DNA of 40,781 bases from a virus: the UHGV virus genome UHGV-0177491; one strand, 5' to 3'. Each line of letters starts with the position of its first letter. Position 1 is the stretch's first letter. Below the pieces are notes generated by a model. The model saw only the letters and a list, made by a program, of their open reading frames with translations, ran no database searches and was not told the origin of the DNA. Positions 7,141-40,781 of this stretch are shown here, piece after piece. The translations under genes were made by a program, and so were the position numbers.

Positions 7141-9837
7141 CTATTCCACAACATCATCTTCTATCAATTCAGCCTTATTTAGTTGTTCCTTAAGCTTATT
7201 CCATGCAGAATCCTCAGGCATCTGTACTCGCACAGAAACGAATTGATTAGCAGGAATGTCGATCGGGTCACCGTTCGAAACACCAGGTATGTCGTTACGT
7301 GCAAAAACGGGCGAGTTATCATGAGTGCGGTGAAACGTTTTCACCAACACAGATCCATCTTGGTTAACAACATAATCCAGCCAGATGAGCGGCTGCTTGT
7401 TTCGGTCCTGCGGTATTTCAAATCCACCATCAATCCCACCCCATGAAGCATCTGCATTCAGACCTACGCAACCCTCAATCAGATATTCACCCAATGCCAG
7501 CCGTGTGACGGTTACCCCATCTGATTCGCGATTTGTTTCACTACTACCGTCTGAGAAAATCTTCACAACCGGAGAGGCTTTTTTGATGAAACCACTTGAA
7601 TCGACGGTCGTGTTCAGCGACGACCATGCCTCAGCCCAGCCTGCGTTACCTGCGCGAATAGCATCGCCTGCGTAGCGGAAGAACAGTTTTGATGTTGTGG
7701 ACATGAATATCTGCAACACACGGTTTTTTGCATATCCTGACTCCCATAATGCTCCGTTACCTGTTCCTTCTGGCTGCCAGTTTGTCTTCCCACCTGCTTC
7801 TCCTATACTTACACCAGTAGACCAGTCTCCAGCAAATTCTGGAAGATTTGGTGAGTTAGGTGAGCGAATTGATACATCAACCAGACCAGGGGATCCGAGA
7901 ATCGACATGCTGCGGGAGGACACCTTAGTAAAAGAGTTGTACCCGCCGTTTTTGGAAATCCTTCCTGTATAATTATTAGCCCTGTTGGTTCCATTAACTG
8001 TAATTTCCCAGGTATCGCCGTTGATGAAGTCGATCTGCAATATGCAGTATGCTGGCAGTGTCATCTGTCCTGGCGCAGATGGCCCACCTTCAAACAGTGG
8101 CATATCCTGTTCAAGATATGTCACATATCTACCTGCATCTGTATTCCGCAAATAGTCACAAATAGCTTGTGCCGATGTAAATAGCGCAATACCATCAGCC
8201 GGGTTTACAGGGTGACGGCCAGCGTTAATCACCCTTCCGCGAGGGTTAAATAACTGTGATGCGGCATTGGATAGCGGACTCATGTCTACTGTTCCAGGTT
8301 CATTAGATGGACAGTTAGCGCGAATGATGTTTAAAGTCCTATAATTTGATCCGCCCCCATTGCCATAGCGAATAGACTGTAGAAGATACAATTCCTCAGA
8401 GCCAGAAATATCACAAGACTGCACCCCCTCATTTTCAGTGGAGTAAACACTCTTCCCTGAATAACTATCCCAGTATGTTTTGAAATCTGCAGGTGACAGC
8501 AGGTACTGACCTAATTCTGAACCAGAATGGCTGTACTCAATATAACCCTGCAACCCTGCGAAAGTATTTCCAGATCCCGCCGTGGTAGATGCACCAATAC
8601 CAGCAAATATCCGTTGAGAACCAAGAGCGACACCCTGCCGTTTTGGTTTACCGGCTCCGCGACCTCCAACATTTGCATCAACCGTAATAGTCCCCATTGG
8701 ACTATAAGATCCTTCTATAAGGCTGTTAATATCCAGTGTGTTAAAGATATTGGATACACCTGTCTCAACATCAAAAATTTTCGGCCAACCCATGTCCGCG
8801 TTTTCGTATAGCAGGGTATTACCAAAACCACTGAACTGATATCGCACTCCAAGTTTGGGTGATTCCGTGAAGTTTGTGATCTGCGTTTTATCAGCTAGCG
8901 TGCGCGGGTCTCCGATAGGGTAAATTCTGATAGTGCGGGATGGGCTGTACGGCAGTAGAATATAGCGCTGCCCTGCTTTTCTGTAAACGTGGATGCCTTC
9001 TGGTGCACCAACGTTATTCGGAAAATGAAGACGTGTTACCAATGCTCCTGTTGCCCAGTCATGCACCGTAACCCATACCGATGCGGGGTTTAGCGTCTGC
9101 CAGCCGATGTATACCATTCCATCATTGCTGTCTATGTAAATCCCCTGAAATCCCATGGTCGTATAACCATACTGACCTTTAAGATCTGCGGTAATCTCAT
9201 TGTCTATGATGCTGAATTCTAATTTCCAGTTCAGCGGCCTACGCGTACCACTGACATGTCTGGAAATATGAGACAGGTAGCTTTTAACCCCGCCTGCGAT
9301 AATGTATCTATCTTTGATCTCAGTAACAATTCCAGTTGCAACTGGAGTGCATTTATAGACGCCGCCGTTTATTCTAATAAAATTGGTTCCTGTTAGATTA
9401 TCCCCAATGGCAACGTCTTTGCTACTATTCTTAAACGTCCCATTACCTAAGTCAGTAACAAGCAATGCCCCTTCTACATATTTCAATGACTGATCAGGGT
9501 CATACTTCAGCACATTAGGAAAATAGAACTGCTTAGCACCATATGCATCATAAACAGCCATAGAATGGCCTTGCACAGTTACGAACTTGGCTATTTGCCC
9601 GTTATATACCGGGTAACCAGCAGCGTTAATGATGATTGGTTGCGAAACAGGAACGTGAGAACCGTCTTCATTCTCAACATAAACCTGAATCCGGTTTTCA
9701 GGATTTACCGGGTCAGTGTCAATTTTACCGATATAAATTCTGCCATTGGCATTTGCTTTAAACGAGCGAGCTAAAGTAAATAAGTTACTTGGTTGTGAAA
9801 CGACAACGTTGTATGATTGATTTGGCATAATAAACAT
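7141..9837 (-). CDS. Tailspike protein: P22-type head-binding domain plus unrecognised receptor-binding region
   Basis: N-terminal about 110 aa ([54 protein letters not shown]...[13 protein letters not shown]...NVLKYDPDQ) matches the P22 gp9 head-binding domain as recalled. The remaining about 780 aa are not recognised. Confidence 0.85.
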
Positions 9838-9850
9838 TCCGGAGAAAATA

Positions 9851-10354
9851 ATGAGTAAGAGACGTCACGAGGTAGTAACTCGGGAGCGCCTTATGGAGGT
9901 TCTAGTTTACAATAAAGAAACAGGAATTTTCACCTGGAAAAAGAAATTAAGCGCCAGAGGCGCTGTTGGTAAAGCTGCTGGCACAATCACTCCTTGTGGG
10001 TATAACGCAATTAGTATTGATGGCGTAAGATATTTTGCACATAGACTTGCCTGGCTGTATGTATATGGCGAATGGCCAAAACAAGAGATTGACCACATTG
10101 ATAGAAACAGAAGAAATAACGCAATCTCAAACCTTAGAGATGTTAGCAGGGTCGTAAATGCGTTAAATGTCGGACCTCGAAATAGCAATACTGGAATCAA
10201 GGGGGTAACTTTCTGTCAAGCCAGAAATCAATGGCAAGCTCAGATACATCTCTCAGGTAAAAACATAACTCTTGGGAGATTCAACACCATTGATGAGGCA
10301 GCTATAGCTTATAAGGCAGCAAACATGGTTGCTGACCATCTGTTGGGGCTGTAA
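9851..10354 (+). CDS. HNH homing-type endonuclease with AP2-like DNA-binding domain
   Basis: HNH motif region [22 protein letters not shown]-terminal [43 protein letters not shown] resembles AP2 domains of phage HNH endonucleases. Divergent from the tailspike start, about 13 bp apart. Confidence 0.8.
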
Positions 10355-10420
10355 TGTTTGTCATTTAATTTGCTCCATATACAAGGAACCGCCACGGAGT
10401 GGCTACGGTGAGTTTTTGGC

Positions 10421-10444
10421 ATAAAAAACCCAGCCGAAGCTGGG
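10421..10444 (-). terminator. Intrinsic terminator on the minus strand downstream of the arc region
   Basis: Hairpin CCCAGC-ttcg-GCTGGG followed by TTTTTTat on the minus strand. Confidence 0.45.
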
Positions 10445-10482
10445 TCGTTACGTTTGTTATGTATACCAATTCAATCATGCTG

Positions 10483-10764
10483 TCAATCGACAGGAAACGC
10501 CGTGAAATTTAGCAGGTGTTGTAGTGCCTTAACGCCTTCAGAATTGTAACGGAACGCCTCTACCTGTTTGCTGGAGTGCGACGATTTATCCAGAAAGAAC
10601 TTCCCGTACCGCTCAGTTTTGAGGTTGTTTGCGTTAGCAATGCGACCAATCTTGTTGGCTGTTACTCCAAGATTCTCTGCAACCTCCCTTGCTGAGTAGT
10701 AATGCTCTTCTATTGCCGGAAGAGGTATTCTAGCTAATGCGCCCTTCCTTCTTAAGACTGGCAA
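10483..10764 (-). pseudogene. Possible antirepressor (ant) 5' remnant downstream of arc
   Basis: 93-codon ORF with no in-frame ATG (track start is TTG overlapping arc). Sits where ant lies in P22 immI; the rest of that position is occupied by the opposite-strand HNH gene. Confidence 0.3.
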
Positions 10765-10888
10765 TTACTCTCTGATAAATCTCAGAGTTAACAGATCGAC
10801 CATTCTCTTCCGCCACCTTGCGTACCAAATCCAACACTTCTTTAGGCCACCGCAAATTGAACTGCGGCATCTTGCTCATTCCTTTCAT
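10730..10888 (-). CDS. arc: Arc repressor homolog (ribbon-helix-helix), 52 aa
   Basis: Translation MKGMSKMPQFNLRWPKEVLDLVRKVAEENGRSVNSEIYQRVIASLKKEGRIS is near-identical to P22 Arc as recalled; SD GAGGTG. Not in the ORF track (under 60 aa). Confidence 0.85.
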   Translation of the reverse strand: MKGMSKMPQFNLRWPKEVLDLVRKVAEENGRSVNSEIYQRVIASLKKEGRIS

Positions 10889-10904
10889 ATTCACCTCACA
10901 GCAC

Positions 10905-10950
10905 GGCCCACAGTGGACCTATTGAGAATATAGTAGAGTGATTCTATCAT
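10905..10950 (-). promoter_or_regulatory. immI control region: Arc operator-like and Mnt operator-like sites
   Basis: Minus-strand ATGATAGAATCACTCTACTAT (10930-10950) resembles the P22 arc operator; AGGTCCACTGTGGGCC (10905-10920) resembles the palindromic P22 mnt operator, both from memory. Confidence 0.55.
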
Positions 10951-11044
10951 GCCAGCGCACTAACTTGGAGTGATGGCATGGCAGAGATTGTTCACACACA
11001 AACACCTAAAAAGTCTAATTTGCTCTAATTTTGTGTATTAATGG

Positions 11045-11074
11045 TTGCATAAACAAATAAATTAGGAATATAAT
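11045..11074 (+). promoter_or_regulatory. Sigma70 promoter for the KilA-N/lipoprotein cassette
   Basis: TTGCAT (11045-11050), 18-nt spacer, TATAAT (11069-11074), about 30 bp upstream of the 11106 start. Divergent from the arc promoter. Confidence 0.45.
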
Positions 11075-11105
11075 TTAAGTGAGGTAATTAATTGGAGAAA
11101 AAGAT

Positions 11106-11762
11106 ATGAAAGTGCAGACTTTAGAGTTCCCATACGGTGAAGTCGAGTTCACCAGAGATGAGTATATCGATGCGTCAACACTAACCGTTCAAATGAACCG
11201 ATGGAGATTTGATAACGGTCTTCAACCAAGAAATCTTGCTCAGATACTGAAAACGGATGACTGCAAAGACTTCATGCGTGTTTGTGAAGAGGAGACTGGT
11301 ATTATTCCGTTAAAAACAACGAGAGGAAGGAATGGGAAAACGTGGCTAAGTCTCCATCTGGCGGTGTATGTCGCCGAGCAGTACAGCACTTATTTCCACT
11401 TTCTCGTCATTGATCGTTTTATCACCCAGAGACAGGTCGAGTTGCGAAACATTGGTGCGGCAAGTTTTGTGGAGCTTAACGCAGCAGTTAGTCGGATGCT
11501 TGAGCGTACAGAAGGTAGGATTGGTCATAGTGGTCATTTCATTCAGGTTGCAAAGGTGGTTAAGGAATCGATAGATATCCGTGAAGTTACCGGGTTTGAT
11601 ACCTGGGATTCTCAGGATGCAAAAACCAACCAGTTGCGCAGCGAGATACAGAAGTCTCTTGTTCAGGCTCTTGATATGGAGTTTGTCAACTCGTGGGATG
11701 AGCTGAAAGAGACGATACCGCGAGTTGTGCGTAAATGCGCTGAGAAGATTGCAAGAGCTTAA
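11106..11762 (+). CDS. KilA-N domain-like protein (218 aa)
   Basis: Segment KTTRGRNGKTWLSLHLAVYVAEQYSTYFHFLVIDRF fits the KilA-N/APSES-type pattern as recalled. Occupies the position where mnt/sieA lie in P22. Confidence 0.5.
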   Translation: MKVQTLEFPYGEVEFTRDEYIDASTLTVQMNRWRFDNGLQPRNLAQILKTDDCKDFMRVCEEETGIIPLKTTRGRNGKTWLSLHLAVYVAEQYSTYFHFLVIDRFITQRQVELRNIGAASFVELNAAVSRMLERTEGRIGHSGHFIQVAKVVKESIDIREVTGFDTWDSQDAKTNQLRSEIQKSLVQALDMEFVNSWDELKETIPRVVRKCAEKIARA

Positions 11763-11783
11763 AAAATGATGAGGGTTACCAAT

Positions 11784-12269
11784 ATGAAAAAGGCACTGTT
11801 AATTATCCCGTTTCTGCTGGTTGGATGTGCAAAAGTAAGTGACTATCAGGCAAATTGCGAACAACGCTATCAAAAGCTTAGCGATATGGCCACTTGCCTT
11901 GATGCCAGCGTGAAGAGCGACTCACGCATGGCGTCAGCACCAACACCTAAACTGTATGTCCTTGCTGCGAAGATGCTCGGGCAAGGTGTCGATGAAGGCA
12001 AGATAAGTAACGCGCAGGCAAGACTTGAGCTTCAGAATCTTTATGTTCAATTGCAAGCCCAAGAACAAGCCCAGCAAATAGCGCAAAGCCAGGCATTTCA
12101 GCAGGCTTTATTGAATTATCAGGCTTTAAACACAATGCAAGCGATCGAGCAAAAAGCCAGACAGCCTGTTATAACTCAACCTTACCCAACGCGTGTTGAC
12201 ACCTATACAAACTGCAATTCAGGGTTTGGAAATACAGTCACATGCAACAGTAGCAGTAACATCAGATAA
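11784..12269 (+). CDS. Lipoprotein (signal peptide with lipobox LLVGC), Gln-rich
   Basis: MKKALLIIPFLLVGC: type II signal peptide and lipobox. GAGGG SD upstream of ATG at 11784 (track ORF begins at 11766). No family recognised. Confidence 0.65.
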   Translation: MKKALLIIPFLLVGCAKVSDYQANCEQRYQKLSDMATCLDASVKSDSRMASAPTPKLYVLAAKMLGQGVDEGKISNAQARLELQNLYVQLQAQEQAQQIAQSQAFQQALLNYQALNTMQAIEQKARQPVITQPYPTRVDTYTNCNSGFGNTVTCNSSSNIR

Positions 12270-12289
12270 CAATCCGTTGTGGAGGATTT

Positions 12290-12367
12290 ATGAACAGAGA
12301 CATGCTGAATCTTGCGTTCTACATATTTGGCTTTTGCACGTTCCTTGTGCTTGAAAAACTATTCTGA
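12290..12367 (+). CDS. Possible 25-aa hydrophobic peptide
   Basis: GGAGG then ATG at 12290; MNRDMLNLAFYIFGFCTFLVLEKLF. Overlaps the convergent ejection-protein gene end by 9 nt. Very short, so weak. Confidence 0.2.
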   Translation: MNRDMLNLAFYIFGFCTFLVLEKLF

Positions 12368-14752
12368 CAACGCATCAGACTTGGCGCCCTGAGTAAGGGC
12401 GTTAATGGCCTTTTGCGCCTGCTGTATGGCTTTCTCAAACGCTGTTGAGCCGCGTGGGGTGTTTGCCATTCGTAGCATTGCATTTCTGAATGGCTCGCTC
12501 TCATAGGCGCGAGCGAGAAGTCCGTAGCTTACTGTTGCGCCAGTTGTCAACTGATTCATTGCCGTACCATACCAAATAATGAACGGGATGGTTTGTTGTC
12601 CTGTTGGTGTTGTTACTGCCGCTTTTGCAGCCTGCTGCGTGGATTGCAGGTAGTTTTTCAATCCTTTCAGATAAGCAGCTTCCTGCCCTTTAAATGTGAT
12701 GCCAGTCTGGTTTTGCAGGATGTTAAGCTGCCGAAGGAACTGATCAGGAGATCCACCAGATTTCTCCATCGCCTTCCCAATGATGCCATTGCGCATTTGC
12801 GCCCTGCCAACACGACCAACTGAGTTATACAGCGCCTTAATTTCAGATTTGTTCTTGCTGAATAGCATGTTATTGACAACTTCCGGCGTCAGATCGCCTT
12901 TCATGAGAACATTCTTCAGCCTGGTGTTCTTTAGTTTCGCCGCTTCGTCAGCGTAGACGGCATTGGCCTGCTGGTATTTACGGAGAGTATCGTTGCCAAG
13001 ATTCTGACCAATGGCACCATTGATATCGCCAGTCATTGCCTTGTAAACGCGCTGAATGGCGGCATCGGAACGGTTTGGTAACACTGGTCGCTCACCCTTC
13101 ACGTCCATTCTGAACTGGCTGCGCAGATCGCTTAATTGCTTCAAATCCAGATTGACCGGACCATCAGGACCAGCATTGCGAACAAGCTCATCACGATATG
13201 ACTGAAGTTTTGAAATCGTCTCGTTATCAGCGACCTTACCAAGCTTCTGCAGATTAGATATTTCTGTATCAATCTGCTGAATTGCTCGCACAGGCTGAAT
13301 GTTTACTCCAGCCATAGCATTCTGAACCTGCTCCAGTCTATTACCGGCAGCACGACGAATTCCTGATGTTTTCGCTTTAAGGCTGTCAATAACAACCGCT
13401 GGATCATACTCACCGAATTTATCAGCAAATCTCTGCACCAACTGGCTTCTCGCTTCCTGTTGCGTTGCTCTCATTCTGCTTGTGCCAGCAAGAGGGATAT
13501 TTTCTGCTGTCGTTTGCGCCATTTTTCCGACGCGGGAAGTAGGCTGTAACAGGTCTGTGGTGTGCAGGGGCACCCCTTCACGCTCTGCAAATCTGATAGC
13601 TTGCTGCGCTTCTGGTGCAATAGCACCACGAACGCCACGATAAGCAGCGCCTAATCCACGCCCGGCAGCGTTAATAGCACCGCCAGCCAGCACGCCAACG
13701 CCTAAATCGGTAGCGAGTGCTTCCGCATCATCTTTCGCACTATTTGCAGCAAGTGATCCAACTGCGTTTTCTGCTAGAAGGCGAGTTGCCCCCTGAGCAA
13801 TTCGACCAGCAAGTGTTGGTGCCTGTACCGCCACTCTCTCAACGCCAGCAGGAGTGAGGTAAGGCAATGCTTCAGCAAATACCCTTCCCTCTGTTGTTTG
13901 TGGAGTCAGCGCGCCTTGCTGAAGGCCAAAGTCCTGCTCTAATCCCTGCGTTGTTACTCGTGGCGCTGGTTGATATGTACCATCTCCAATGCCGAGTTTA
14001 CCGCCAGCCCAAGCCGCCGCGCTTGCTACAGCATCAGTGAGTTCAGCAGGTATGTTCGCTACGTTGATTCCTGCCTGTAGTAAGCCGCGCCCTGTTTCAG
14101 CAAATCCATTACCAAGGTCAGACATTATTCCGTCTTGTTGCTGAACAGGTTTCGGCGCGACAGAACTTACGGGTTGAGGTGGCTGCTGACTGGCTGCCTG
14201 CTGCTCAATCTGAGCAAATGGATTGTTTGGGTCTGACTGCACACCTGATGCAGATACTTGTTCGGATGACTGTACTTCCAGTTGTGCAAACGGGTTGTTA
14301 GGGTCTTGCTGAGGATGCACCTTTGCAGAGGTGGCGCGCTGTTCGACTGTTGAGTCTGTCACCGGGTCACCCGTCCATTGAGCAAAGCGATCATCAACGT
14401 AACCGCGGCCCTCAGGCCCCGGAGTATATTCACCACGCTTTGCCTTCATGACGTTGCCTGGACCGTCGTGATAAGCCTGAAGAGCGTCACGCCAATTACC
14501 AAACTGCTGGTACATCTTTGCCAGATAGCGCGCGCCAGCGTCAGCCTGATATTCGGGGTTTTGCATTTGCTCATCGGTATAACCCATATCACGCCATGTC
14601 CCAGGCATGACCTGAGTCAATCCTACAGCCCCGGCGGAGCTTACTGCGGCAGGGTTGTAAGAAGACTCCTTGGCACCCAGTGCAGTCATCAACCCTTCTG
14701 GCACACCGTAACGTGCGCCAGCCTGCTCTAACAAATCACGGTAATTAGCCAT
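12359..14752 (-). CDS. Ejection/internal virion protein (gp16 position) with N-terminal lytic transglycosylase domain
   Basis: N-terminus GAKESSYNPAAVSSAGAVGLTQVMPGTWRDMGYT...AGARYL is an SLT-type motif; 797 aa; last gene of the ejection-protein trio. Confidence 0.7.
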   Translation of the reverse strand: MANYRDLLEQAGARYGVPEGLMTALGAKESSYNPAAVSSAGAVGLTQVMPGTWRDMGYTDEQMQNPEYQADAGARYLAKMYQQFGNWRDALQAYHDGPGNVMKAKRGEYTPGPEGRGYVDDRFAQWTGDPVTDSTVEQRATSAKVHPQQDPNNPFAQLEVQSSEQVSASGVQSDPNNPFAQIEQQAASQQPPQPVSSVAPKPVQQQDGIMSDLGNGFAETGRGLLQAGINVANIPAELTDAVASAAAWAGGKLGIGDGTYQPAPRVTTQGLEQDFGLQQGALTPQTTEGRVFAEALPYLTPAGVERVAVQAPTLAGRIAQGATRLLAENAVGSLAANSAKDDAEALATDLGVGVLAGGAINAAGRGLGAAYRGVRGAIAPEAQQAIRFAEREGVPLHTTDLLQPTSRVGKMAQTTAENIPLAGTSRMRATQQEARSQLVQRFADKFGEYDPAVVIDSLKAKTSGIRRAAGNRLEQVQNAMAGVNIQPVRAIQQIDTEISNLQKLGKVADNETISKLQSYRDELVRNAGPDGPVNLDLKQLSDLRSQFRMDVKGERPVLPNRSDAAIQRVYKAMTGDINGAIGQNLGNDTLRKYQQANAVYADEAAKLKNTRLKNVLMKGDLTPEVVNNMLFSKNKSEIKALYNSVGRVGRAQMRNGIIGKAMEKSGGSPDQFLRQLNILQNQTGITFKGQEAAYLKGLKNYLQSTQQAAKAAVTTPTGQQTIPFIIWYGTAMNQLTTGATVSYGLLARAYESEPFRNAMLRMANTPRGSTAFEKAIQQAQKAINALTQGAKSDALSE

Positions 14753-32135: not shown

Positions 32136-32422
32136 GACTTAATCTTCCCCTCCCTCAGCAGTATCGCCTGCGTCCTGATCACGCCTTCGAGGTGGTAAAG
32201 TCTGGCGTCTTTGTTGTCGAGATTATGGGTGCGTCGGTCGATCTCCGCGTGGCAGTCACTACAAGCCCATGCACCGATCAGGTCGTCAGGCTTCATTCCC
32301 GTTCCGCAAATTCCAGCCATCCGGTAATGTGCCAGAACTGTAGTTTCAGGATTACCATTGCATACGCCGTAAATACGTACCTGGCATTCTCTGCCGCGTG
32401 CTTCTTTGCGTAGGTTAGCCAT
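32132..32422 (-). CDS. DUF1364-family (YbcO-like) protein
   Basis: Cys/His-rich 96-aa protein immediately upstream of rusA, as in the DLP12 ybcO-rusA arrangement. Confidence 0.6.
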   Translation of the reverse strand: MANLRKEARGRECQVRIYGVCNGNPETTVLAHYRMAGICGTGMKPDDLIGAWACSDCHAEIDRRTHNLDNKDARLYHLEGVIRTQAILLREGKIKS

Positions 32423-33192
32423 TAAGCAGCCTCCCCTGTTACTTTCAGCATTCCGTTATCGAGCAGCTTTCTGGTCAGCCACTGTTGACCACGCCCGGTG
32501 ATTTTTGTGGTGAACGATATCTGTATTCCGTGATTTGTGTTGACCGCTGTTTCTTTCACTGTGAAATAGCCGCGCTCCATATATTCCTGCATTGGCACAT
32601 TGCGCCGGGAACCTGAAGCAATAAGGATTTTGTGATCACGCATCCACGCAAACAGTTTGTTTGGACCAGTACCGACAACCTTTGCAAAGTTTCCAATCAA
32701 AATTCCGCTGGCCTCGCCAACGCGATCGGCAAACTCAACTTTAGGTGCTGCGAGAGCAAGCTGCTGTTCCAACTTCACCTTCTGCTCATACTCATTAGCC
32801 CATGCTCTGGCAGCCTCTGCCGGGTTGGAGAAGTCAGGCAGTTGTAATTGCTGGCTCACTTTGTTGCGGAAATAGTTCCTCACCAACTCTCGCTGTACGC
32901 GCCACGCTGTCTCATCACGTAGTGTCTTTACCAGCATCAGATAGCCGGATTCTGTGAAAACCCTTAAGCCATTTGGTGAAATTTTCATCGACGGGTAGGC
33001 CGTCTGTTGCGTAAAATCAATAAGATACGTATCTTCTCCGTCTATAAAATATTTCGCGTTTCTCGCATAACCATCTTTGATAGTGGTTACTGGAACCCCG
33101 TGAATATCAGCAATCATTTGATACGTAACAACACGCTCACCATTAAACTCAATCGGCACGATTTCTGCGTTGGCAATAATTACGGCATTCAT
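32422..33192 (-). CDS. Antirepressor-like protein (ORF6N N-terminal domain plus Ant-like C-terminal region)
   Basis: N-terminal EFNGERVVTYQMIADIHGV...GLRVFTESGYLMLVK (ORF6N-like); central PDFSNPAEAARAWANEYEQK shared with the 2541..3212 protein. Confidence 0.65.
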   Translation of the reverse strand: MNAVIIANAEIVPIEFNGERVVTYQMIADIHGVPVTTIKDGYARNAKYFIDGEDTYLIDFTQQTAYPSMKISPNGLRVFTESGYLMLVKTLRDETAWRVQRELVRNYFRNKVSQQLQLPDFSNPAEAARAWANEYEQKVKLEQQLALAAPKVEFADRVGEASGILIGNFAKVVGTGPNKLFAWMRDHKILIASGSRRNVPMQEYMERGYFTVKETAVNTNHGIQISFTTKITGRGQQWLTRKLLDNGMLKVTGEAA

Positions 33193-34284: not shown

Positions 34285-35126
34285 GCCGCATCCTCAAAAT
34301 TAAATCCAAGCTGACATGAAAATGCTTCACATGATTCAGAACACGAACCTGAATCATACTGTCGCATTGATGTCATTCTTGAGGCTAACTCATCTCTTGA
34401 TATATCACTAAACAAGGCAATCAGTGATTTAAGTGTATTATTCCCTCGATACATAACCGGTTCCTTTCCTGTTTTTATTTCTGTATCAAGGATGTTGATA
34501 AATGCATCTGCAAGTTCTGGCTCATCCATGGCTGCCAGCGCAACCTTTTGCATACTTTTTTTTATACAGAAAACACAATTACCAAGATGCTCCTGTATGC
34601 CAAGATCAAACTTCTGCCCACTCCACCAATCAAGCACATCCTGTTTTTCAAAATCGCTTATATCAGCCAGGTACCGAAAACCATTAGCCCTTTTAAGTCT
34701 GTTTGGTTCATCTGTGCGAATGCCAAGCCATGTGATGTAATTTCCTTTCCCAAACTTTTCCTGACAATATTTGGTGAATGGAACAGACTTCATTCTGTCG
34801 GTACAGAACGCACCGCCGATATATGGATGTCCGTATTTATTCAACATCCTTTTCCACGGTATAAGATCTGGACCAATATCATTGACACCTATCTCTTCAT
34901 AACTACTGGCCTTCCCCATTTCTGGATTAGGTATTACACGAAGGCAATGTAAGTCTATTTTCCAGTTACTGACGATATTTCGGATGAACTCATATGTTTT
35001 AGGGTGCTCTGCCCCTGTATCCATGAAAACGTAATGCACGTCTTCACCTGCCTGTCGCTTTTGCTCCATTAGCCAGAGCAAATATGCTGACGTCCTGCCA
35101 CCTGAGAAACTAACGACATTTATCAT
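34281..35126 (-). CDS. ninC: NinC-like protein (PAPS reductase / PP-loop family)
   Basis: [12 protein letters not shown]-loop motif near the N-terminus; position after ninB as in lambda. ATG at 35126 overlaps the NinB stop. Confidence 0.75.
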
Positions 35127-35569
35127 GCAGCCCTCCCTTTTCGTTGTGACCATTCATACTCTCGCCTGGAGTCATCACTCCACCGCACGTTGCGCTCTGA
35201 GCCGAACCAGAACATGATTTCGATAAGCTCAGTCATGCTGACCTTTCGCATTTTGCTGGTACGCACGCCAAGCATGACAACGCCACCGTCGATACCAGGA
35301 ACGCTTCGTTGCTCCAGTTTTTTGGTCTTAAGCCACAGGGCAGTGAACAGATCTTTCCAGTCCTCCGGCGCAAGTCTCTTTCCATGCCAAAGCACCTGAC
35401 GTGATACGTCCTGCAATAACGCCCACATAAGTCGGTTTTGAGGATTGCTCCGCTTTGGTTCTTTAACGTGGACTTCGTGAGGTGACTTGTCGTCGATGGG
35501 AAGTGAGAGTATTGCGTCTATGGCGTTATTTCTGATTGCTTCGTTGCGAAGCATGTATATTTGCCTCAC
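35123..35569 (-). CDS. ninB: NinB-like recombination protein
   Basis: NPQNRLMWALLQDVSRQVLWHG...WSDDSRREYEW matches lambda NinB as recalled; AAGGAGG SD 7 nt before GTG at 35569. Confidence 0.9.
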   Translation of the reverse strand: MRQIYMLRNEAIRNNAIDAILSLPIDDKSPHEVHVKEPKRSNPQNRLMWALLQDVSRQVLWHGKRLAPEDWKDLFTALWLKTKKLEQRSVPGIDGGVVMLGVRTSKMRKVSMTELIEIMFWFGSERNVRWSDDSRREYEWSQRKGRAA

Positions 35570-35700
35570 CCTTAAACCTCCTTAATCGCATTCTGACGAG
35601 ATTTTGCATCTAGACACCCGATTACATACCTGCTGTGTGTTTATCTCGCTACAGGCTCATCTAGGCGCCTTAAAATCGATTTTTGTTGTTTTGGTTGTGT

Positions 35701-35731
35701 GCAAACAAAAGGCCTGCGATTACCAGCAGGC
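35701..35731 (-). terminator. Intrinsic terminator after the primase-helicase gene
   Basis: Minus-strand hairpin GCCTGC-tggtaatc-GCAGGC followed by TTTTGTTTG. Confidence 0.5.
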
Positions 35732-35761
35732 TGTTATTAGCTCAGTGATATAGATGGTCAT

Positions 35762-38668
35762 TTAATACTCCGTCACGTTTTCCTGTCGCCACGCCTCGTC
35801 ATATTCCGATTTCGGCATATTGGCGATGTAGCTATATGGCGATCCTGATTCAAGTTGCAGGAACTGGTGCGATTGCTCGTCAAGGAACAACGAGACACCA
35901 CCTTCCCAACCTTCGCCGTTACGTTGTTTTTCAAGCATCAAAACAGATGCCGGAGATGCCAGTAGCTGTTCGTCCTTCTCTGTCATCTTTTCACCACTCT
36001 GAACTCTCTGTAACGCTCTCTCGCGAGCCTTGTTACGCCAGATGATGAAAAGGTTGTCTGTCAGGTCTGTTATCGCGCCAGAGCCTTTTACGTCCATTTT
36101 CCCGGTTGGTTTTTCTTCGCTGTCTCCTTTTCGCGAGTGAGTAACGAGAATGACGTGGGAGTTTGTTTTGTTTTTGAAGTCGCAAATCGAGTCAACAAAC
36201 GCCTTCTGCCCGTTATAGTCATCGTCACCTATGCCGCATTTCATCAGGCTGTCGATGATGAATAACTGGATGCCGTATCGGCGGCGAGCGTAGTCGAATA
36301 TTTCGATCAGCCTGTCGGCTTTCGCCGTTCCGGTCAGGCCAAACACCCAAAGTCTTTCGTCATAAAATTTAAATGCAGAGTCAATTTCCAGCACTGGCGG
36401 CATCTTGCAGCACGTCGCCTGACGGGTAAGGCGCTTAAGGAGAATACCAGGCTTCAGCTCAAGTGACGCGATGCACGTCTTCACACCCTGACGCATTGCC
36501 TCAAGTGCCATATGCCCGACAACCTCGGTGTTATGCGTCGCCACATATCCCCTGGTTACATACAGGTGGCGAGGGTGATCGACCATAATACACAAGCATT
36601 CTGCATTGCCTATTTTTTCAACATTCCTGACGAATACCCCACAGCCCTCGAATCGATGCGCAGTTAATCTGCCATTGAGTCGTGGTGAACGGATGGCATC
36701 CCTGATTTCTCTTGTCAGTCTGATTCTTGCCTCGTATGAATCCATCCCATGCCGCTTATCGCCCTTGTATGTGTATGTCACGCCAGTTTTAACTCGCGTC
36801 CGGCATGACCCGCCGAGTGAGTTAACCAGTTGAACAACCCCATTGAGCAGTTCTTCACTTGCTGAGGAAAAAACAAGCGTTCCATCCTTCTCGACATACC
36901 CATCCGTTTCAAGCAGACCACACAGCATGCCTATACGCGTTGATTTATTTGCAGAAAAAAACACACGAGGGATGAATTTGTTTTTTGCTGTGCACCCCAT
37001 TAGTCCATAACCTCGCAGGGTCTCCATGAGTGGATTTACCTGACCACGCGCCGTTGATATCAGCCAGTCCTTACCATCTCCAGAGAAGTTGTAATCAGGC
37101 AGTTCAGCCTTCATACGCTCGATCATGTATGGCTCGACGTTTGAAAACTTCACGCTCCCATTGCTAAGACTACCATCCCCGAGAAGGGAGCCGATAACCC
37201 ATGCTAATGGCTCTGAGTGGTCGCCAAAGTCACCAGTTATTTCAGGAATCCTAACGCCATTTTTGTGCCTCTTCGTTTCACTCAACCGTTTCAGCTCGAA
37301 GGTGTCTATCACGCGGCGCTTCTCGCCTTTCGTGAATCCACGACTAGTGACCTCCCATAGGTGATCGCCTGCGCAATCAACATAACGACCATCTTCAAAT
37401 GTGACTCGGTAAACATCTCTAACACCCTGCGGGAATATCCCGGTGACAGTTGACGGATTGCCGTCAACTGACGCCACCTGATCGCCAATTTTTACATCCC
37501 CGTGAGTAGTCCATTCACCATTAGCGAGCAGAATTGGTTCATCAAGTGGACAGGCTTTTCCGTGACCGTTCACACCATTGACCAGCGTCAACTCGGCCTC
37601 ACGGAACTGGAATTTATCTGCCAGAGATTCCCACGGTGGATTAAACAGATACTGCTGCTTGCCGTAGAAAGCGTTGATAGTGTCCTGGTAAAACTCTCGC
37701 GCGCTGTAGAGTTCTTCAGGATCGAAGTAGGATGCCGTGCCGATGTACTGCCAGATTTCATCCTCGGTAACACCGTTCATCAGGCATTCGTTGATGTCTT
37801 TGTACGGCAGAGTAACAAGACGGCAACGATGTTCACCGAGTCGGCTTGCGATTTCCCTTGCGGCTTCACGACCAACATCATCAACGTCCATCGAGATGAA
37901 TATTTCCTCAAACCTGTCGAGGTTGTGATACTCAAACTCAATCCACTGTTGCTTAGCGCCTTTCCCGCCACCAAACGGCACGGATAACGCCGAGATGCCG
38001 TATTGCGCATAGCTCATACAATCAATTTCGCCTTCGCAAAGTACAACCGCCCTCACGCCAGCGTCCAGAGCCTGCCATCCGAACAGACAAGGTTCGCAAT
38101 CACCTTCTGCCATAATGACTTTCTTCCCGTCCGGGCGCTCAGTGCTGATTCGCTTGACCTGCAACAACTCACCATCGCGTTTGTACGGAAGCACCAGTGC
38201 ATCAAGTTCTCGTTCTCCATCCCACACCTTGCCGCTGACAACCTCGTAGCGCTTTACGACTTCTGGCGATATGCCACGCGATTGCAGGTACTCAAGATGG
38301 GATTCTGTTCTGGTAACGTAGCGGGCGATTTTCTTGCGGTCAGGTCTGGAGAATTTCTTCTCACGTTTGGCATCGAAATGGTGATCGTCATCCTTGATTC
38401 CGAGAAATGCTTTCGCTTCCTGCATAGCCTGATGCAGGTTAATTCCACGACATGCCATCCACAAATCAAGCATGTCACCGCCGTCTCCCTCAGCGAAATC
38501 AGCCCATTTTTTCTTGCCGCTAAGGTTGACCTTAAGGCTGTTTCCCTTGTCACCGTTGACGTTACCGGCAACCCACTCATGCCCCTCTTTCTTGCCGTTT
38601 GGCAACAGGTGCGGAGCCACCCTGTCAACCTGCGCCCAAAGCAGGTCGCTGAGTTCACTTGGCCTCAT
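35762..38668 (-). CDS. Primase-helicase (Toprim primase domain plus DnaB/SF4-like helicase domain) carrying an intein
   Basis: Toprim motif VVLCEGEIDCMSY; helicase motifs GVNGHGK (Walker A), LFIIDSL, VTHSRK, KGSGAITDLTDNLFIIWR. A 341-aa insertion interrupts the Walker A. Confidence 0.85.
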   Translation of the reverse strand: MRPSELSDLLWAQVDRVAPHLLPNGKKEGHEWVAGNVNGDKGNSLKVNLSGKKKWADFAEGDGGDMLDLWMACRGINLHQAMQEAKAFLGIKDDDHHFDAKREKKFSRPDRKKIARYVTRTESHLEYLQSRGISPEVVKRYEVVSGKVWDGERELDALVLPYKRDGELLQVKRISTERPDGKKVIMAEGDCEPCLFGWQALDAGVRAVVLCEGEIDCMSYAQYGISALSVPFGGGKGAKQQWIEFEYHNLDRFEEIFISMDVDDVGREAAREIASRLGEHRCRLVTLPYKDINECLMNGVTEDEIWQYIGTASYFDPEELYSAREFYQDTINAFYGKQQYLFNPPWESLADKFQFREAELTLVNGVNGHGKACPLDEPILLANGEWTTHGDVKIGDQVASVDGNPSTVTGIFPQGVRDVYRVTFEDGRYVDCAGDHLWEVTSRGFTKGEKRRVIDTFELKRLSETKRHKNGVRIPEITGDFGDHSEPLAWVIGSLLGDGSLSNGSVKFSNVEPYMIERMKAELPDYNFSGDGKDWLISTARGQVNPLMETLRGYGLMGCTAKNKFIPRVFFSANKSTRIGMLCGLLETDGYVEKDGTLVFSSASEELLNGVVQLVNSLGGSCRTRVKTGVTYTYKGDKRHGMDSYEARIRLTREIRDAIRSPRLNGRLTAHRFEGCGVFVRNVEKIGNAECLCIMVDHPRHLYVTRGYVATHNTEVVGHMALEAMRQGVKTCIASLELKPGILLKRLTRQATCCKMPPVLEIDSAFKFYDERLWVFGLTGTAKADRLIEIFDYARRRYGIQLFIIDSLMKCGIGDDDYNGQKAFVDSICDFKNKTNSHVILVTHSRKGDSEEKPTGKMDVKGSGAITDLTDNLFIIWRNKARERALQRVQSGEKMTEKDEQLLASPASVLMLEKQRNGEGWEGGVSLFLDEQSHQFLQLESGSPYSYIANMPKSEYDEAWRQENVTEY
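36530..37552 (-). mobile_element. Intein with LAGLIDADG homing-endonuclease domain inserted in the helicase P-loop
   Basis: Insertion begins with Cys after GVNGHGKA, contains LAWVIGSLLGDGS and RIGMLCGLLETDGYV (two LAGLIDADG-type motifs), ends VATHN followed by Thr. Residues about 373-713 of the host protein. Confidence 0.7.
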
Positions 38669-38775
38669 GATTCCCTCAGATTGAGATTTTTAAACCAGAA
38701 ATCGACAAACGAAATACTTAACCAGCCGTGGTTATAACCAGCGACCAGTAGCGATTTGATTTTTGATTTCATGGT

Positions 38776-39546
38776 TCACCTGTCGAAAAACACGTAGCCA
38801 GTTTTCGATACGGTGATTGCGGATGATGGTTTGGATTGTGGTTGAATAGTTTCTGGCTTCTCGTCGTTCCAGCGTTGACCGTTCAGGTAGCTCGATGGTA
38901 ACAACCTGTCGAATCCGAACTGCTTACCACTCCTGCATGCGATGTCTTCTGCCAGCATCGTGGCAAACTCGCTTGCCGTACCCCTTGTAGTTTTACGCCA
39001 TTCCCTGAACTGTGTTCTGAATGCTGAAGCTGCGTTTTTCTTCCCGGCTTTCCGCATGCCTGCACACCAGAATATTTCCTCGAATGCCTTGTCGGTTTCT
39101 TCGTGACGGTCAGGAGTTTTTTCACACTCTGTTCGGACATGTTCGAACATAATGTTTTTAGGTTCATTGACTGGTTCAAAAGAGTGACTGGTTCTGGGTG
39201 CAGCTCCTGCACCACCCCCTAGTGAATCTCCTGCACCAGGGTGGTGAATCTCCTGCACTACCCCTAGTGAATCTCCTGCACCCCCAAGCCGAAGAATATA
39301 GATATTACTTGAGTTGCCTTTTTCACCTTTTCGGGTGACTTTTTTTAGCAAGCCAGCCTCACAAAGAGCCTCAATATGGTTAATCACGGAGCGTTTGCTA
39401 ATCTCGCACTGGTCAGCGATATGCTGATATGAAGGCCAGCATTCGCCATTGTCATTGGCGTTATCGGCAAGTTTAAGCAGAACCAGTTTTCTGAGCGGGT
39501 TTCCAACTTTGGCTCCCATTGCCTTCACCATCAGAATCATACTCAT
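38776..39546 (-). CDS. Iteron-binding replication initiator (lambda O-like)
   Basis: N-terminal wHTH-like region (KLVLLKLADNANDNGECWPSYQHIADQCEISKRSV); iteron repeats lie inside the coding sequence; position after cro and the cII remnant. Confidence 0.75.
   Translation of the reverse strand: MSMILMVKAMGAKVGNPLRKLVLLKLADNANDNGECWPSYQHIADQCEISKRSVINHIEALCEAGLLKKVTRKGEKGNSSNIYILRLGGAGDSLGVVQEIHHPGAGDSLGGGAGAAPRTSHSFEPVNEPKNIMFEHVRTECEKTPDRHEETDKAFEEIFWCAGMRKAGKKNAASAFRTQFREWRKTTRGTASEFATMLAEDIACRSGKQFGFDRLLPSSYLNGQRWNDEKPETIQPQSKPSSAITVSKTGYVFFDR
39204..39290. repeat. Intragenic iterons (about four degenerate 22-bp repeats) forming the replication origin
   Basis: Units CTCCTGCACC...GTGAATC repeated with variation inside the initiator gene; related to the perfect repeats at the window ends. 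Confidence 0.7.
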
Positions 39547-39835: not shown

Positions 39836-39862
39836 TGTGTCTTCTCCTGTAATTTGTGCTTT

Positions 39863-40072: not shown

Positions 40073-40117
40073 TCGCTTTTCAGCGACGTAGGACGAATGT
40101 CCGTTGTTACAAAGAGC
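40073..40117 (-). promoter_or_regulatory. nutR-like site (boxA plus boxB)
   Basis: Minus-strand GCTCTTTGTAACAA (boxA-like) and TCGCT-GAAAA-AGCGA hairpin (boxB-like, same loop as nutL) just downstream of the cro-like gene. Confidence 0.55.
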
Positions 40118-40128
40118 AGTCCCGCTTA

Positions 40129-40344
40129 TTAAGCGGCTTTGTGTTCCGGCGGGAACACGTCATCAAGACTTACATTTGCGCCTAACTTGTTCAGGTAAGC
40201 AACGAGAGCACGGCATGTTTTAAGATCTGGCATGCGACGACCACTTTCCCAATGACCGACAGCCGACTGTGTGCATCCAACTGCCTTAGCAAGTATTGTT
40301 TGACTGATGCTCACTGACTTTCGATATTTCTTAAGGTTGTTCAT
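40129..40344 (-). CDS. Cro-like HTH (XRE-family) regulator
   Basis: 71 aa with HTH QTILAKAVGCTQSAVGHWESG; first gene of the minus-strand early operon. Confidence 0.65.
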   Translation of the reverse strand: MNNLKKYRKSVSISQTILAKAVGCTQSAVGHWESGRRMPDLKTCRALVAYLNKLGANVSLDDVFPPEHKAA

Positions 40345-40373
40345 ATTTCCTTCCCAACATTGGTAACCACGCT

Positions 40374-40405
40374 ATTATAGTACATCTAGTGCGTTTTTAA
40401 TGCAA
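40374..40405 (-). promoter_or_regulatory. PR-like promoter for the cro-like gene
   Basis: Perfect TATAAT on the minus strand (plus 40374-40379) about 25 nt upstream of the start; the -35 is imperfect. Confidence 0.45.
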
Positions 40406-40576
40406 GCAAAAATACCACACTCCAAATCCTGGTGAACCAACCCCAAACCTCCTGAATCGCATTCTGACGCAATATTTACGCCCACACGTACATTTTAATG
40501 TCTGACAGTTGTTTATCTCTCTACAGCGCTTCCTATGGCGTTTAAACGCCATTGACGTAACTAATGGTTGCCGAGA

Positions 40577-40737
40577 CCGGCTTTCCGCATGCCTGCACAC
40601 CAGAATATTTCCTCGAATGCCTTGTCGGTTTCTTCGTGACGGTCAGGAGTTTTTTCACACTCTGTTCGGACATGTTCGAACATAATGTTTTTAGGTTCAT
40701 TGACTGGTTCAAAAGAGTGACTGGTTCTGGGTGCAGC
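40577..40737 (-). pseudogene. Duplicated internal fragment of the replication initiator gene
   Basis: About 160 bp near-identical to 39044-39203; both overlapping track ORFs (40542..40748, 40561..40770) reproduce initiator-gene translations. Confidence 0.7.
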
Positions 40738-40781
40738 TCCTGCACCACCCTGGTGAATCTCCTGCACCACCCTGGTGAATC
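40738..40781. repeat. Iteron array: two perfect 22-bp units continuing to the window end
   Basis: TCCTGCACCACCCTGGTGAATC twice, identical to units at 1-66; joined end to start the array would hold at least five perfect units. Confidence 0.85.

Follow-up and report, generated by a model that had tools for sequence, protein, structure and literature searches.

The replication origin of phage lambda lies within gene O and is composed of iterons, an AT-rich region and a palindrome; O iterons are also annotated in VT2-Sakai. In mosaic lambdoid genomes, conserved junction sequences are said to mark module boundaries, as set out in the modular view of Susskind and Botstein and in later comparisons of HK97 and HK620. 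T4-type phages carry mobile regulatory cassettes known as ‘promoter-early stem-loops’ (PeSLs), and auxiliary iteron arrays are a feature of plasmid replicons, with incA of P1 and incC of F as examples. Klebsiella phage phiKp_30 (LC768498.2), on which we found nothing in the literature searched, is P22-like, has cro and PL back to back and lacks a repressor.

Here we describe a closed P22-like lambdoid genome of 40,781 nt, written in reverse (hereafter the window, meaning the whole stretch analysed), in which the parts are of known kinds, namely a lambda-type origin, a mosaic junction sequence and a repressor-less derivative of a temperate phage, while their combination with an origin fragment in the immunity region, together with an undescribed cassette, is unusual. 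As in ori-lambda, the initiator gene of the window has tandem 22-23-bp dyad repeats at its middle, with an AT-richer stretch and then a dyad after them, and a patch in the immunity region duplicates exactly that set; unlike ori-lambda, the duplicate, a putative origin, stands outside any initiator gene, between PL and PR, with more units that are perfectly homogenised. The layout recalls P1 incA and F incC in that ~1.5 kb separate a second iteron array from that of the origin, an interval that contains the initiator promoter and the 5′ half of the initiator gene, but it occurs in a phage genome predicted to be lytic rather than in a plasmid, and any control role here would be putative.

A P22-like genome with a patch in place of cI

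On the minus strand, the genes run in the order Cro, cII stump, 84-residue initiator fragment, initiator, primase-helicase, tR2-like terminator, cassette and ninB (Table 1). Neither an ORF nor a tblastn match for a cI repressor was found in the window, and a scan of seven ORFs, located from 4734 up to the tailspike gene (7141-9837) or within 9851-12269, matched no integrase family. Because the repressor has been lost, cII is reduced to a 41-codon stump and no integrase is detectable, the gene content predicts an obligately lytic phage. The usual int site of P22-like phages adjoins the tailspike gene, and in the window an HNH endonuclease (9851-10354) lies beside that gene.

Table 1. Features of the window discussed in the text.
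Feature	Coordinates	Strand	Evidence and remarks
B iteron array, part 2	1-77	-	TRF, 3.5 copies, 100%; perfect 22-bp units TCCTGCACCACCCTGGTGAATC
U, orphan segment (77 nt)	79-155	.	Perfect dyad TTTCACCA-CTTT-TGGTGAAA at 113-132, resembling the iteron core
OL operators and PL (retained)	156-246	+	PL TTGACT-17-TACTAT at 218-246; promoter scan and VT2-Sakai homology
N-type antiterminator	437-709	+	N-like protein; covered by VT2-Sakai homology
cIII thermometer	1847-1905	+	Rfam scan
ninB	35123-35569	-	Pfam NinB, 6e-48
Motif copy A	35574-35598	-	Exact pattern match, A at the variable position; hairpin 3′ arm and Shine-Dalgarno, just 5′ of ninB
Cassette copy A (~120 nt)	35574-35693	-	nhmmer 35693-35556, E = 1.7e-28; between tR2-like terminator and ninB
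tR2-like intrinsic terminator	35702-35731	-	After primase-helicase gene; terminator scan: GCCTGCTGGTAATCGCAGGC then CTTTTGTTTG
Primase-helicase gene	35762-38668	-	Toprim and AAA_25 domains
Empty site (cassette absent)	38665-38680	-	Small ORF overlaps primase-helicase start; relatives have a ~130-nt cassette here
Initiator, 256 residues	38776-39546	-	HTH_36 and DnaD_N; homologs annotated replication protein O
Resident origin	39044-39282	-	Inside initiator gene; iterons 39204-39282 (TRF) and R 39044-39217
Initiator-paralog N-terminal fragment, 84 residues	39581-39835	-	Second initiator allele
cII stump, 41 codons	39863-39988	-	VT2-Sakai homology ends at 39861
Cro	40129-40344	-	Covered by VT2-Sakai homology
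OR2 (part), OR1 and PR (retained)	40345-40415	-	TTGCAT 40405-40400, 17-nt spacer, TACTAT 40382-40377; hexamers read from sequence
Junction segment, cassette B to retained OR2/OR1	40416-40444	-	VT2-Sakai homology stops at 40415; iteron-like half-site CCTGGTGAA at 40428-40436
Motif copy B	40445-40469	-	Exact pattern match, C at the variable position; orphan Shine-Dalgarno region
Cassette copy B (~130 nt)	40445-40576	-	nhmmer 40577-40438, E = 3.9e-30; initiator-to-primase-helicase type
R′, origin-core copy	40577-40750	-	100% identical to 39044-39217; AT-richer stretch and TGTTCGAACA dyad
B iteron array, part 1	40730-40781	-	TRF period 22; contig L131 crosses the window ends

Homology to VT2-Sakai brackets the replaced segment on both sides. 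On the left, window 705 to 156 corresponds to VT2-Sakai 9435-9984 at 90.6% identity and takes in N, nutL, PL and OL1-3; on the right, window 40415 to 39861 corresponds to 12160-12710 at 86.7% and takes in part of OR2, OR1, PR, cro, nutR and the 5′ part of cII. Between these boundaries (window 156 = Sakai 9984; window 40415 = Sakai 12160), a ~520-nt patch (40416-40781 plus 1-155) sits where VT2-Sakai has 9985-12159, a segment that holds two small genes (H0092 and H0093), cI, PRM, OR3 and part of OR2. In phiKp_30, by comparison, PRM and the first ~20 cI codons are kept and the rest is gone, whereas in the lineage of the window the position of cI is occupied by foreign DNA of a replication module. 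The phiKp_30 remnant (L002, 1030-1143) consists of PRM and ~20 Sakai-type cI codons (MKMYELARSRMKELGITQEK) and then jumps to OL/PL, an independent simple deletion of cI.

Several further features of the window were noted. The 84-residue initiator fragment shares 81% DNA identity with the phiKp_30 initiator down to 39633 and continues into unrelated sequence; together with the truncation of cII, it constitutes two further recombination joints within the same 1.5 kb. The primase-helicase gene contains a likely intein with a LAGLIDADG homing endonuclease at 36533-37555 (minus strand), where Pfam Hint and LAGLIDADG domains lie between Toprim and AAA_25, and the gene of IMG/VR contig L113 lacks exactly the counterpart of 36533-37555 (1,023 nt, or 341 codons). 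ORFs 2104-2544 (plus) and 32422-33192 (minus) share the stretch …NGERVVT(F/Y)Q…HGVP(L/V)TTI(R/K)D…YFIDGEDTY(V/L)IDF…LRVFTESGYLMLVK…RDETA, and their counterparts in near-identical contigs carry ORF6N or ORF6N plus ANT domains. In addition, 2928-3208 matches the nin-region side of contig L131 (281 nt, 91%).

Composition, provenance and variation of the patch

Read in lambda orientation, the patch comprises U (77 nt), an iteron array (the B array), R′ (174 nt), cassette B and a 29-nt junction that leads into OR2. The initiator fragment and iterons that the original prediction had placed beside the second motif copy are real, and take the form of a 174-nt exact copy and a perfect 22-bp array. At least three tandem dyad repeats and an adjacent AT-richer stretch are present, as in a lambda-type origin, although the AT enrichment after the array is modest (60-67% over ~60 nt vs 37-43% in the iterons). 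The resident origin lies inside the initiator coding sequence; the B copy does not, being located in noncoding DNA between PL and PR where the called ORFs differ between contigs. The dyad motif CACYA-N3-5-TRGTG occurs within the 40.8 kb only in the two iteron arrays and in U, and the 9-mer half-site of the junction segment is found elsewhere in the window only inside the iteron arrays. The junction segment might conceivably be a diverged 5′ end of the primase-helicase gene (12 of 18 positions match by eye, over a stretch too short to be decisive), but the same segment holds this 9-mer identical to the iteron. No homolog of U was detected in IMG/VR by exact 20-mer scans, and scans of metagenomes and GTDB genomes, like BLAST against phages and E. 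coli genomes, returned only the same phage or chance matches; the 21-mer across the junction of the O fragment and the cassette is absent from IMG/VR.

The patch is colinear with the replication module of a prophage of E. coli FDAARGOS_943 (NZ_CP065615.1), which has an intact cI and rexA. Relative to this prophage, iterons and core are 92% identical, 364 nt are then missing, and the cassette follows at 80%; the gap takes out the 3′ third of the initiator gene together with a small ORF. In phiKp_30 and in five IMG/VR contigs these pieces occur in the same colinear arrangement, and in all of these genomes, as in the prophage, the cassette lies between the initiator and primase-helicase genes. 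Since cassette B is of this initiator-to-primase variant, the deletion spares the primase-helicase gene and removes only the initiator 3′ third and the small ORF. The colinear mapping with its single gap bears out the proposal that the interval between PL and PR derives from an internally deleted copy of a replication module. R′ is 100% identical to the resident R, whereas cassette B reaches no more than 75-81% identity with any of the donor-type cassettes sampled (80% to the E. coli prophage; 74.8-80.2% to the phiKp_30 and IMG/VR copies). For this reason, no sampled genome can be a one-step donor, and we invoke gene conversion: the identity of R′ would reflect conversion with the resident origin, or else an unsampled donor.

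The arrangement recurs in independent assemblies. A 20-mer from U retrieved a metagenome contig (ERZ1034973) that is 99.6% identical and crosses the window ends, and a look-up with the 84-residue initiator fragment retrieved 11 contigs from at least eight ENA assemblies, including genomes of 40,877 and 40,813 nt. In five other metagenome assemblies a contig runs from the B array through R′ and cassette B to PR and cro, and three of these five contigs extend into U; the distance from R′ to cro is constant (381-382 nt). Their B arrays have 4.5-5.5 units, compared to ~3.5 in the resident origin, of two types (CACCA-GGG-TGGTG and CACTA-GGGG-TAGTG) that are both perfect dyads. Over 7.8 kb, the window and the ERZ1034973 contig show 40 differences, 16 of them in the array; divergence between contigs outside the array is ~0.1%, and one contig has a 1-nt deletion in R′.

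Between near-identical genomes the B array (1-77 and 40730-40781; L140-L144) is hypervariable in unit number and type, and each array is mostly homogeneous with its dyads kept, a pattern expected from concerted evolution. Substitutions relative to ERZ1034973 were also observed at 40388 and 40393 (PR spacer/OR1) and in a Cro codon (40265-40266, S to G), which is locally high against ~0.1%. Short ENA megahit contigs (L145-L147; 1532 and 1652 nt) cover the 1,533-nt segment between the exact origin-core copies; they fit an assembly-graph cycle, and at this place genomes of the lineage may have been broken up or wrongly closed.

The intercistronic cassette

Exact matches to the 25-nt pattern CGTCAGAATGCGATT(A/C)AGGAGGTTT occur twice in the 40,781 bases, both on the minus strand and identical at 24 of 25 positions, and none were found in 100 dinucleotide-preserving shuffles. 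The motif does recur upstream of ninB and between PL and PR, as originally predicted, with the second copy a few bases away from the 40448-40476 first given for it. A second exact block, TGTTTATCTC(G/T)CTACAG, lies at equal offset in both copies (35638-35654 and 40510-40526), and the two cassettes align over ~125 nt at 72% identity with a score of 38, where shuffled sequences reached at most 11. Searched with a profile of related copies, the window gave matches only at these two places (nhmmer, E = 4e-30 for B and 2e-28 for A). The caveat that the shared sequence might be limited to a generic ribosome-binding site, or be a chance match, is ruled out by the ~125-nt homology, which includes the second block, and by the empty shuffles. 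Copy B also lies at a recombination joint, as had been proposed. Downstream of it comes nothing but a short ORF reaching into PR; this ORF had been noted as one of 23 codons, but its coding sequence is not conserved and ORF lengths vary between contigs.

The 25-nt motif, a short hairpin and a strong Shine-Dalgarno sequence, forms the 3′ end of an intercistronic cassette of ~125 nt, which in lambdoid phages is found where gene modules meet in the rightward early operon. The cassette contains three conserved blocks: AATCGMTTTTAAG or AATGGCGTTTAAAC (block 1), CTGTRGNGAGRTAAAC (block 2) and GCGTCAGAATGCGWTTNAGGAGG (block 3). The cassette is previously undescribed and absent from Rfam: the motif was not found in print in the literature searched, a scan of the window at the gathering thresholds of Rfam 15 matched only the cIII thermometer, and permissive scans of both cassettes gave nothing relevant. 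It exists in three types. Type 1 opens the nin region in 169 records of Stx-type phages, where the next ORF is unrelated to ninB (as in 933W, where it is L0092, and in P27) and where two different upstream flanks were found for the 933W-type cassette. Type 2 follows tR2 and precedes ninB in the window and in phiKp_30, which has a block 97% identical to copy A; the tR2-like terminator itself shares ~90% identity with the sequence that follows ren in lambda-type phages. Type 3 lies between a small post-initiator ORF and the primase-helicase gene in phiKp_30, five IMG/VR contigs and E. coli prophages. At the corresponding place the window has an empty site: its positions 38675 and 38668 correspond to phiKp_30 33091 and 32959, which gives an insert of ~130 nt in phiKp_30, and the contrast is repeated in IMG/VR contigs L046, L074, L089, L113 and L125.

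Contig L031 (IMGVR_UViG_2565956608_000010) carries a recombinant cassette: the 5′ part after tR2 is of the ninB-leader type, the 933W type supplies the 3′ motif and the gene downstream, and the crossover lies in the motif. Because two types are joined within it in this way, the cassette acts as a site of crossover. With unrelated genes flanking it in different phages and at least this one crossover inside it, the ~125-nt conserved block thus behaves like the junction sequences of lambdoid mosaics; it differs from them in being long, in having three conserved sub-blocks, in occupying at least three positions in one operon and in having one copy stranded in the immunity region. PeSLs are likewise short, repeated intergenic stem-loop cassettes near gene starts that are tied to gene shuffling, but the cassette has no sigma-70-like promoter on its strand (promoter scans of 35400-35900 and 40100-40781 found none), occurs in another phage group and is present in far fewer copies per genome.

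Other functional assignments were considered. The nutL and nutR sites of the window consist of GCTCTTT followed by GCTGAAAAGC hairpins, and boxA (CGCTCTTTA-like) and a boxB with a GAAAA-type loop occur together in no cassette type, which excludes a nut site. An intrinsic terminator in block 1 is excluded as well, as the palindromes ATGGCGTTTAAACGCCAT and AAATCGATTT, read from the sequence, are not followed by a T-run. As for a leader peptide, the upstream ATG of the 933W type and that of copy A are in different frames, the frame ‘ATG CGN TTN AGG AGG’ has no Shine-Dalgarno sequence of its own, and the ORFs after copy B differ in length between contigs. No global RNA consensus structure was obtained (RNAalifold gave only -1.47 kcal/mol and 3 pairs). 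Immediately 5′ of the Shine-Dalgarno sequence, a local hairpin of 8 bp shows 85% pairing and a single compensatory pair, a result equalled by 23 of 500 shuffles; one cassette type does not have it. Our tentative guess is that, in its normal position, the cassette may serve as a leader for translation initiation, in which a small hairpin stands ahead of a strong Shine-Dalgarno sequence, and that, being conserved, it would double as a recombination joint.

Origin and possible role of the patch

We consider the patch likely to be a recombination scar in a repressor-less, probably lytic-only lineage, and not a new kind of element. Illegitimate or unequal recombination would have brought a portion of another replication module alongside OR, and deletions would then have removed cI and most of that second module. 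What remained would be the iterons, the origin core, the 364-nt deletion and the cassette variant that normally precedes the primase-helicase gene, with the origin core afterwards kept identical to the resident one, probably by gene conversion. Copy B would now drive nothing, its Shine-Dalgarno sequence facing the short unconserved ORF that runs into PR. The homologies, the breakpoints, the missing cI and the recurrence in independent assemblies are shown, while the loss of function of copy B, the succession of steps, the conversion and the lytic habit are inferred. Some features sit less easily with this reading: the sampled genomes include no one-step donor, U has no homolog in the databases searched, and the patch retains exactly the parts needed by a lambda-type origin; this retention, the longer arrays and kept dyad symmetry could reflect selection for function.

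The ectopic iterons and origin core may instead form an active second origin, or a locus where initiator binding exerts control by titration or handcuffing, with the resident origin 1.5 kb away, placed as they are between the divergent early promoters; we regard this as unlikely, although several observations point towards it. Apart from iterons, AT-richer stretch and dyad, the patch holds nothing else of the initiator gene, and iteron-like sites flank it (the dyad at 113-132 and the half-site at 40428-40436) and are found nowhere else in the 40.8 kb. All five B arrays are longer than the resident one, with both unit types dyad-symmetric, and the patch persists in a lineage sampled in at least eight assemblies. 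Moreover, phiKp_30 lost cI by a plain internal deletion, so that an insertion is not needed for the loss of cI. However, the divergence of ~0.1% outside the array makes the conservation of R′ and cassette B uninformative on selection, R′ has suffered a 1-nt deletion in one contig, and noncoding tandem repeats expand and homogenise without selection. That a repressor-less P22-like lineage keeps a complete second origin cassette in place of cI, as an extra origin or as a control locus that would couple replication-protein levels to PL/PR activity, is in our judgement rather improbable.

The original prediction had taken copy B for a copy of the ninB leader, in which case the deleted module would once have run from the origin through primase-helicase to ninB. 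The near-identity of the two motifs and the homology of the elements over ~125 nt speak for this derivation, but cassette B aligns better with the initiator-to-primase cassettes (81% and 77% identity, scores of 75 and 65) than with copy A, has in common with them the ATGGCGTTTAAACGCCAT palindrome and a few nucleotides of the flanking sequence upstream, and does not have the tR2-like terminator in front of it as copy A does. The motif on its own does not discriminate, because the ninB leader of phiKp_30 also carries the C variant. We therefore consider descent from the phage's own ninB leader very unlikely.

It is similarly hard to maintain that the cassette is a small mobile element with independent insertions between PL and PR, ahead of ninB and, in relatives, ahead of the primase-helicase gene. 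Such an element would account for the three different genomic positions and for the clean presence or absence at the initiator/primase junction between modules that are 97-98% identical. Copy B, however, adjoins initiator sequence with the order and orientation found in relatives, down to a few bases of upstream flank; no terminal repeats or target duplications were seen, and the genome has two copies, with few types overall. An assembly artefact of the 174-nt exact repeat and the iteron arrays is scarcely credible except as regards the exact unit count: the window does start and end inside an array, the repeat is longer than typical k-mers and some assemblies yield only the 1532- or 1652-nt contigs bounded by it, but repeat collapse cannot make the unique junctions U-array, R′-cassette B and cassette B-OR2, which independent contigs from different assemblers and samples cross in the same order, differing only in the number and type of array units.

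On the most likely reading, that of a recombination scar, this genome is a well-documented and unsurprising example of temperate lambdoid phages turning lytic, in which short conserved intergenic blocks are seen serving as joints in mosaic genomes. It should help annotation and the assessment of P22-like isolates that are put forward for therapy as ‘lytic’. Should the ectopic hypervariable iteron array be active, its position between PL and PR would be unusual for an origin or iteron control element, and a second origin cassette in place of cI, if true, would mean an immunity region rebuilt from replication parts.
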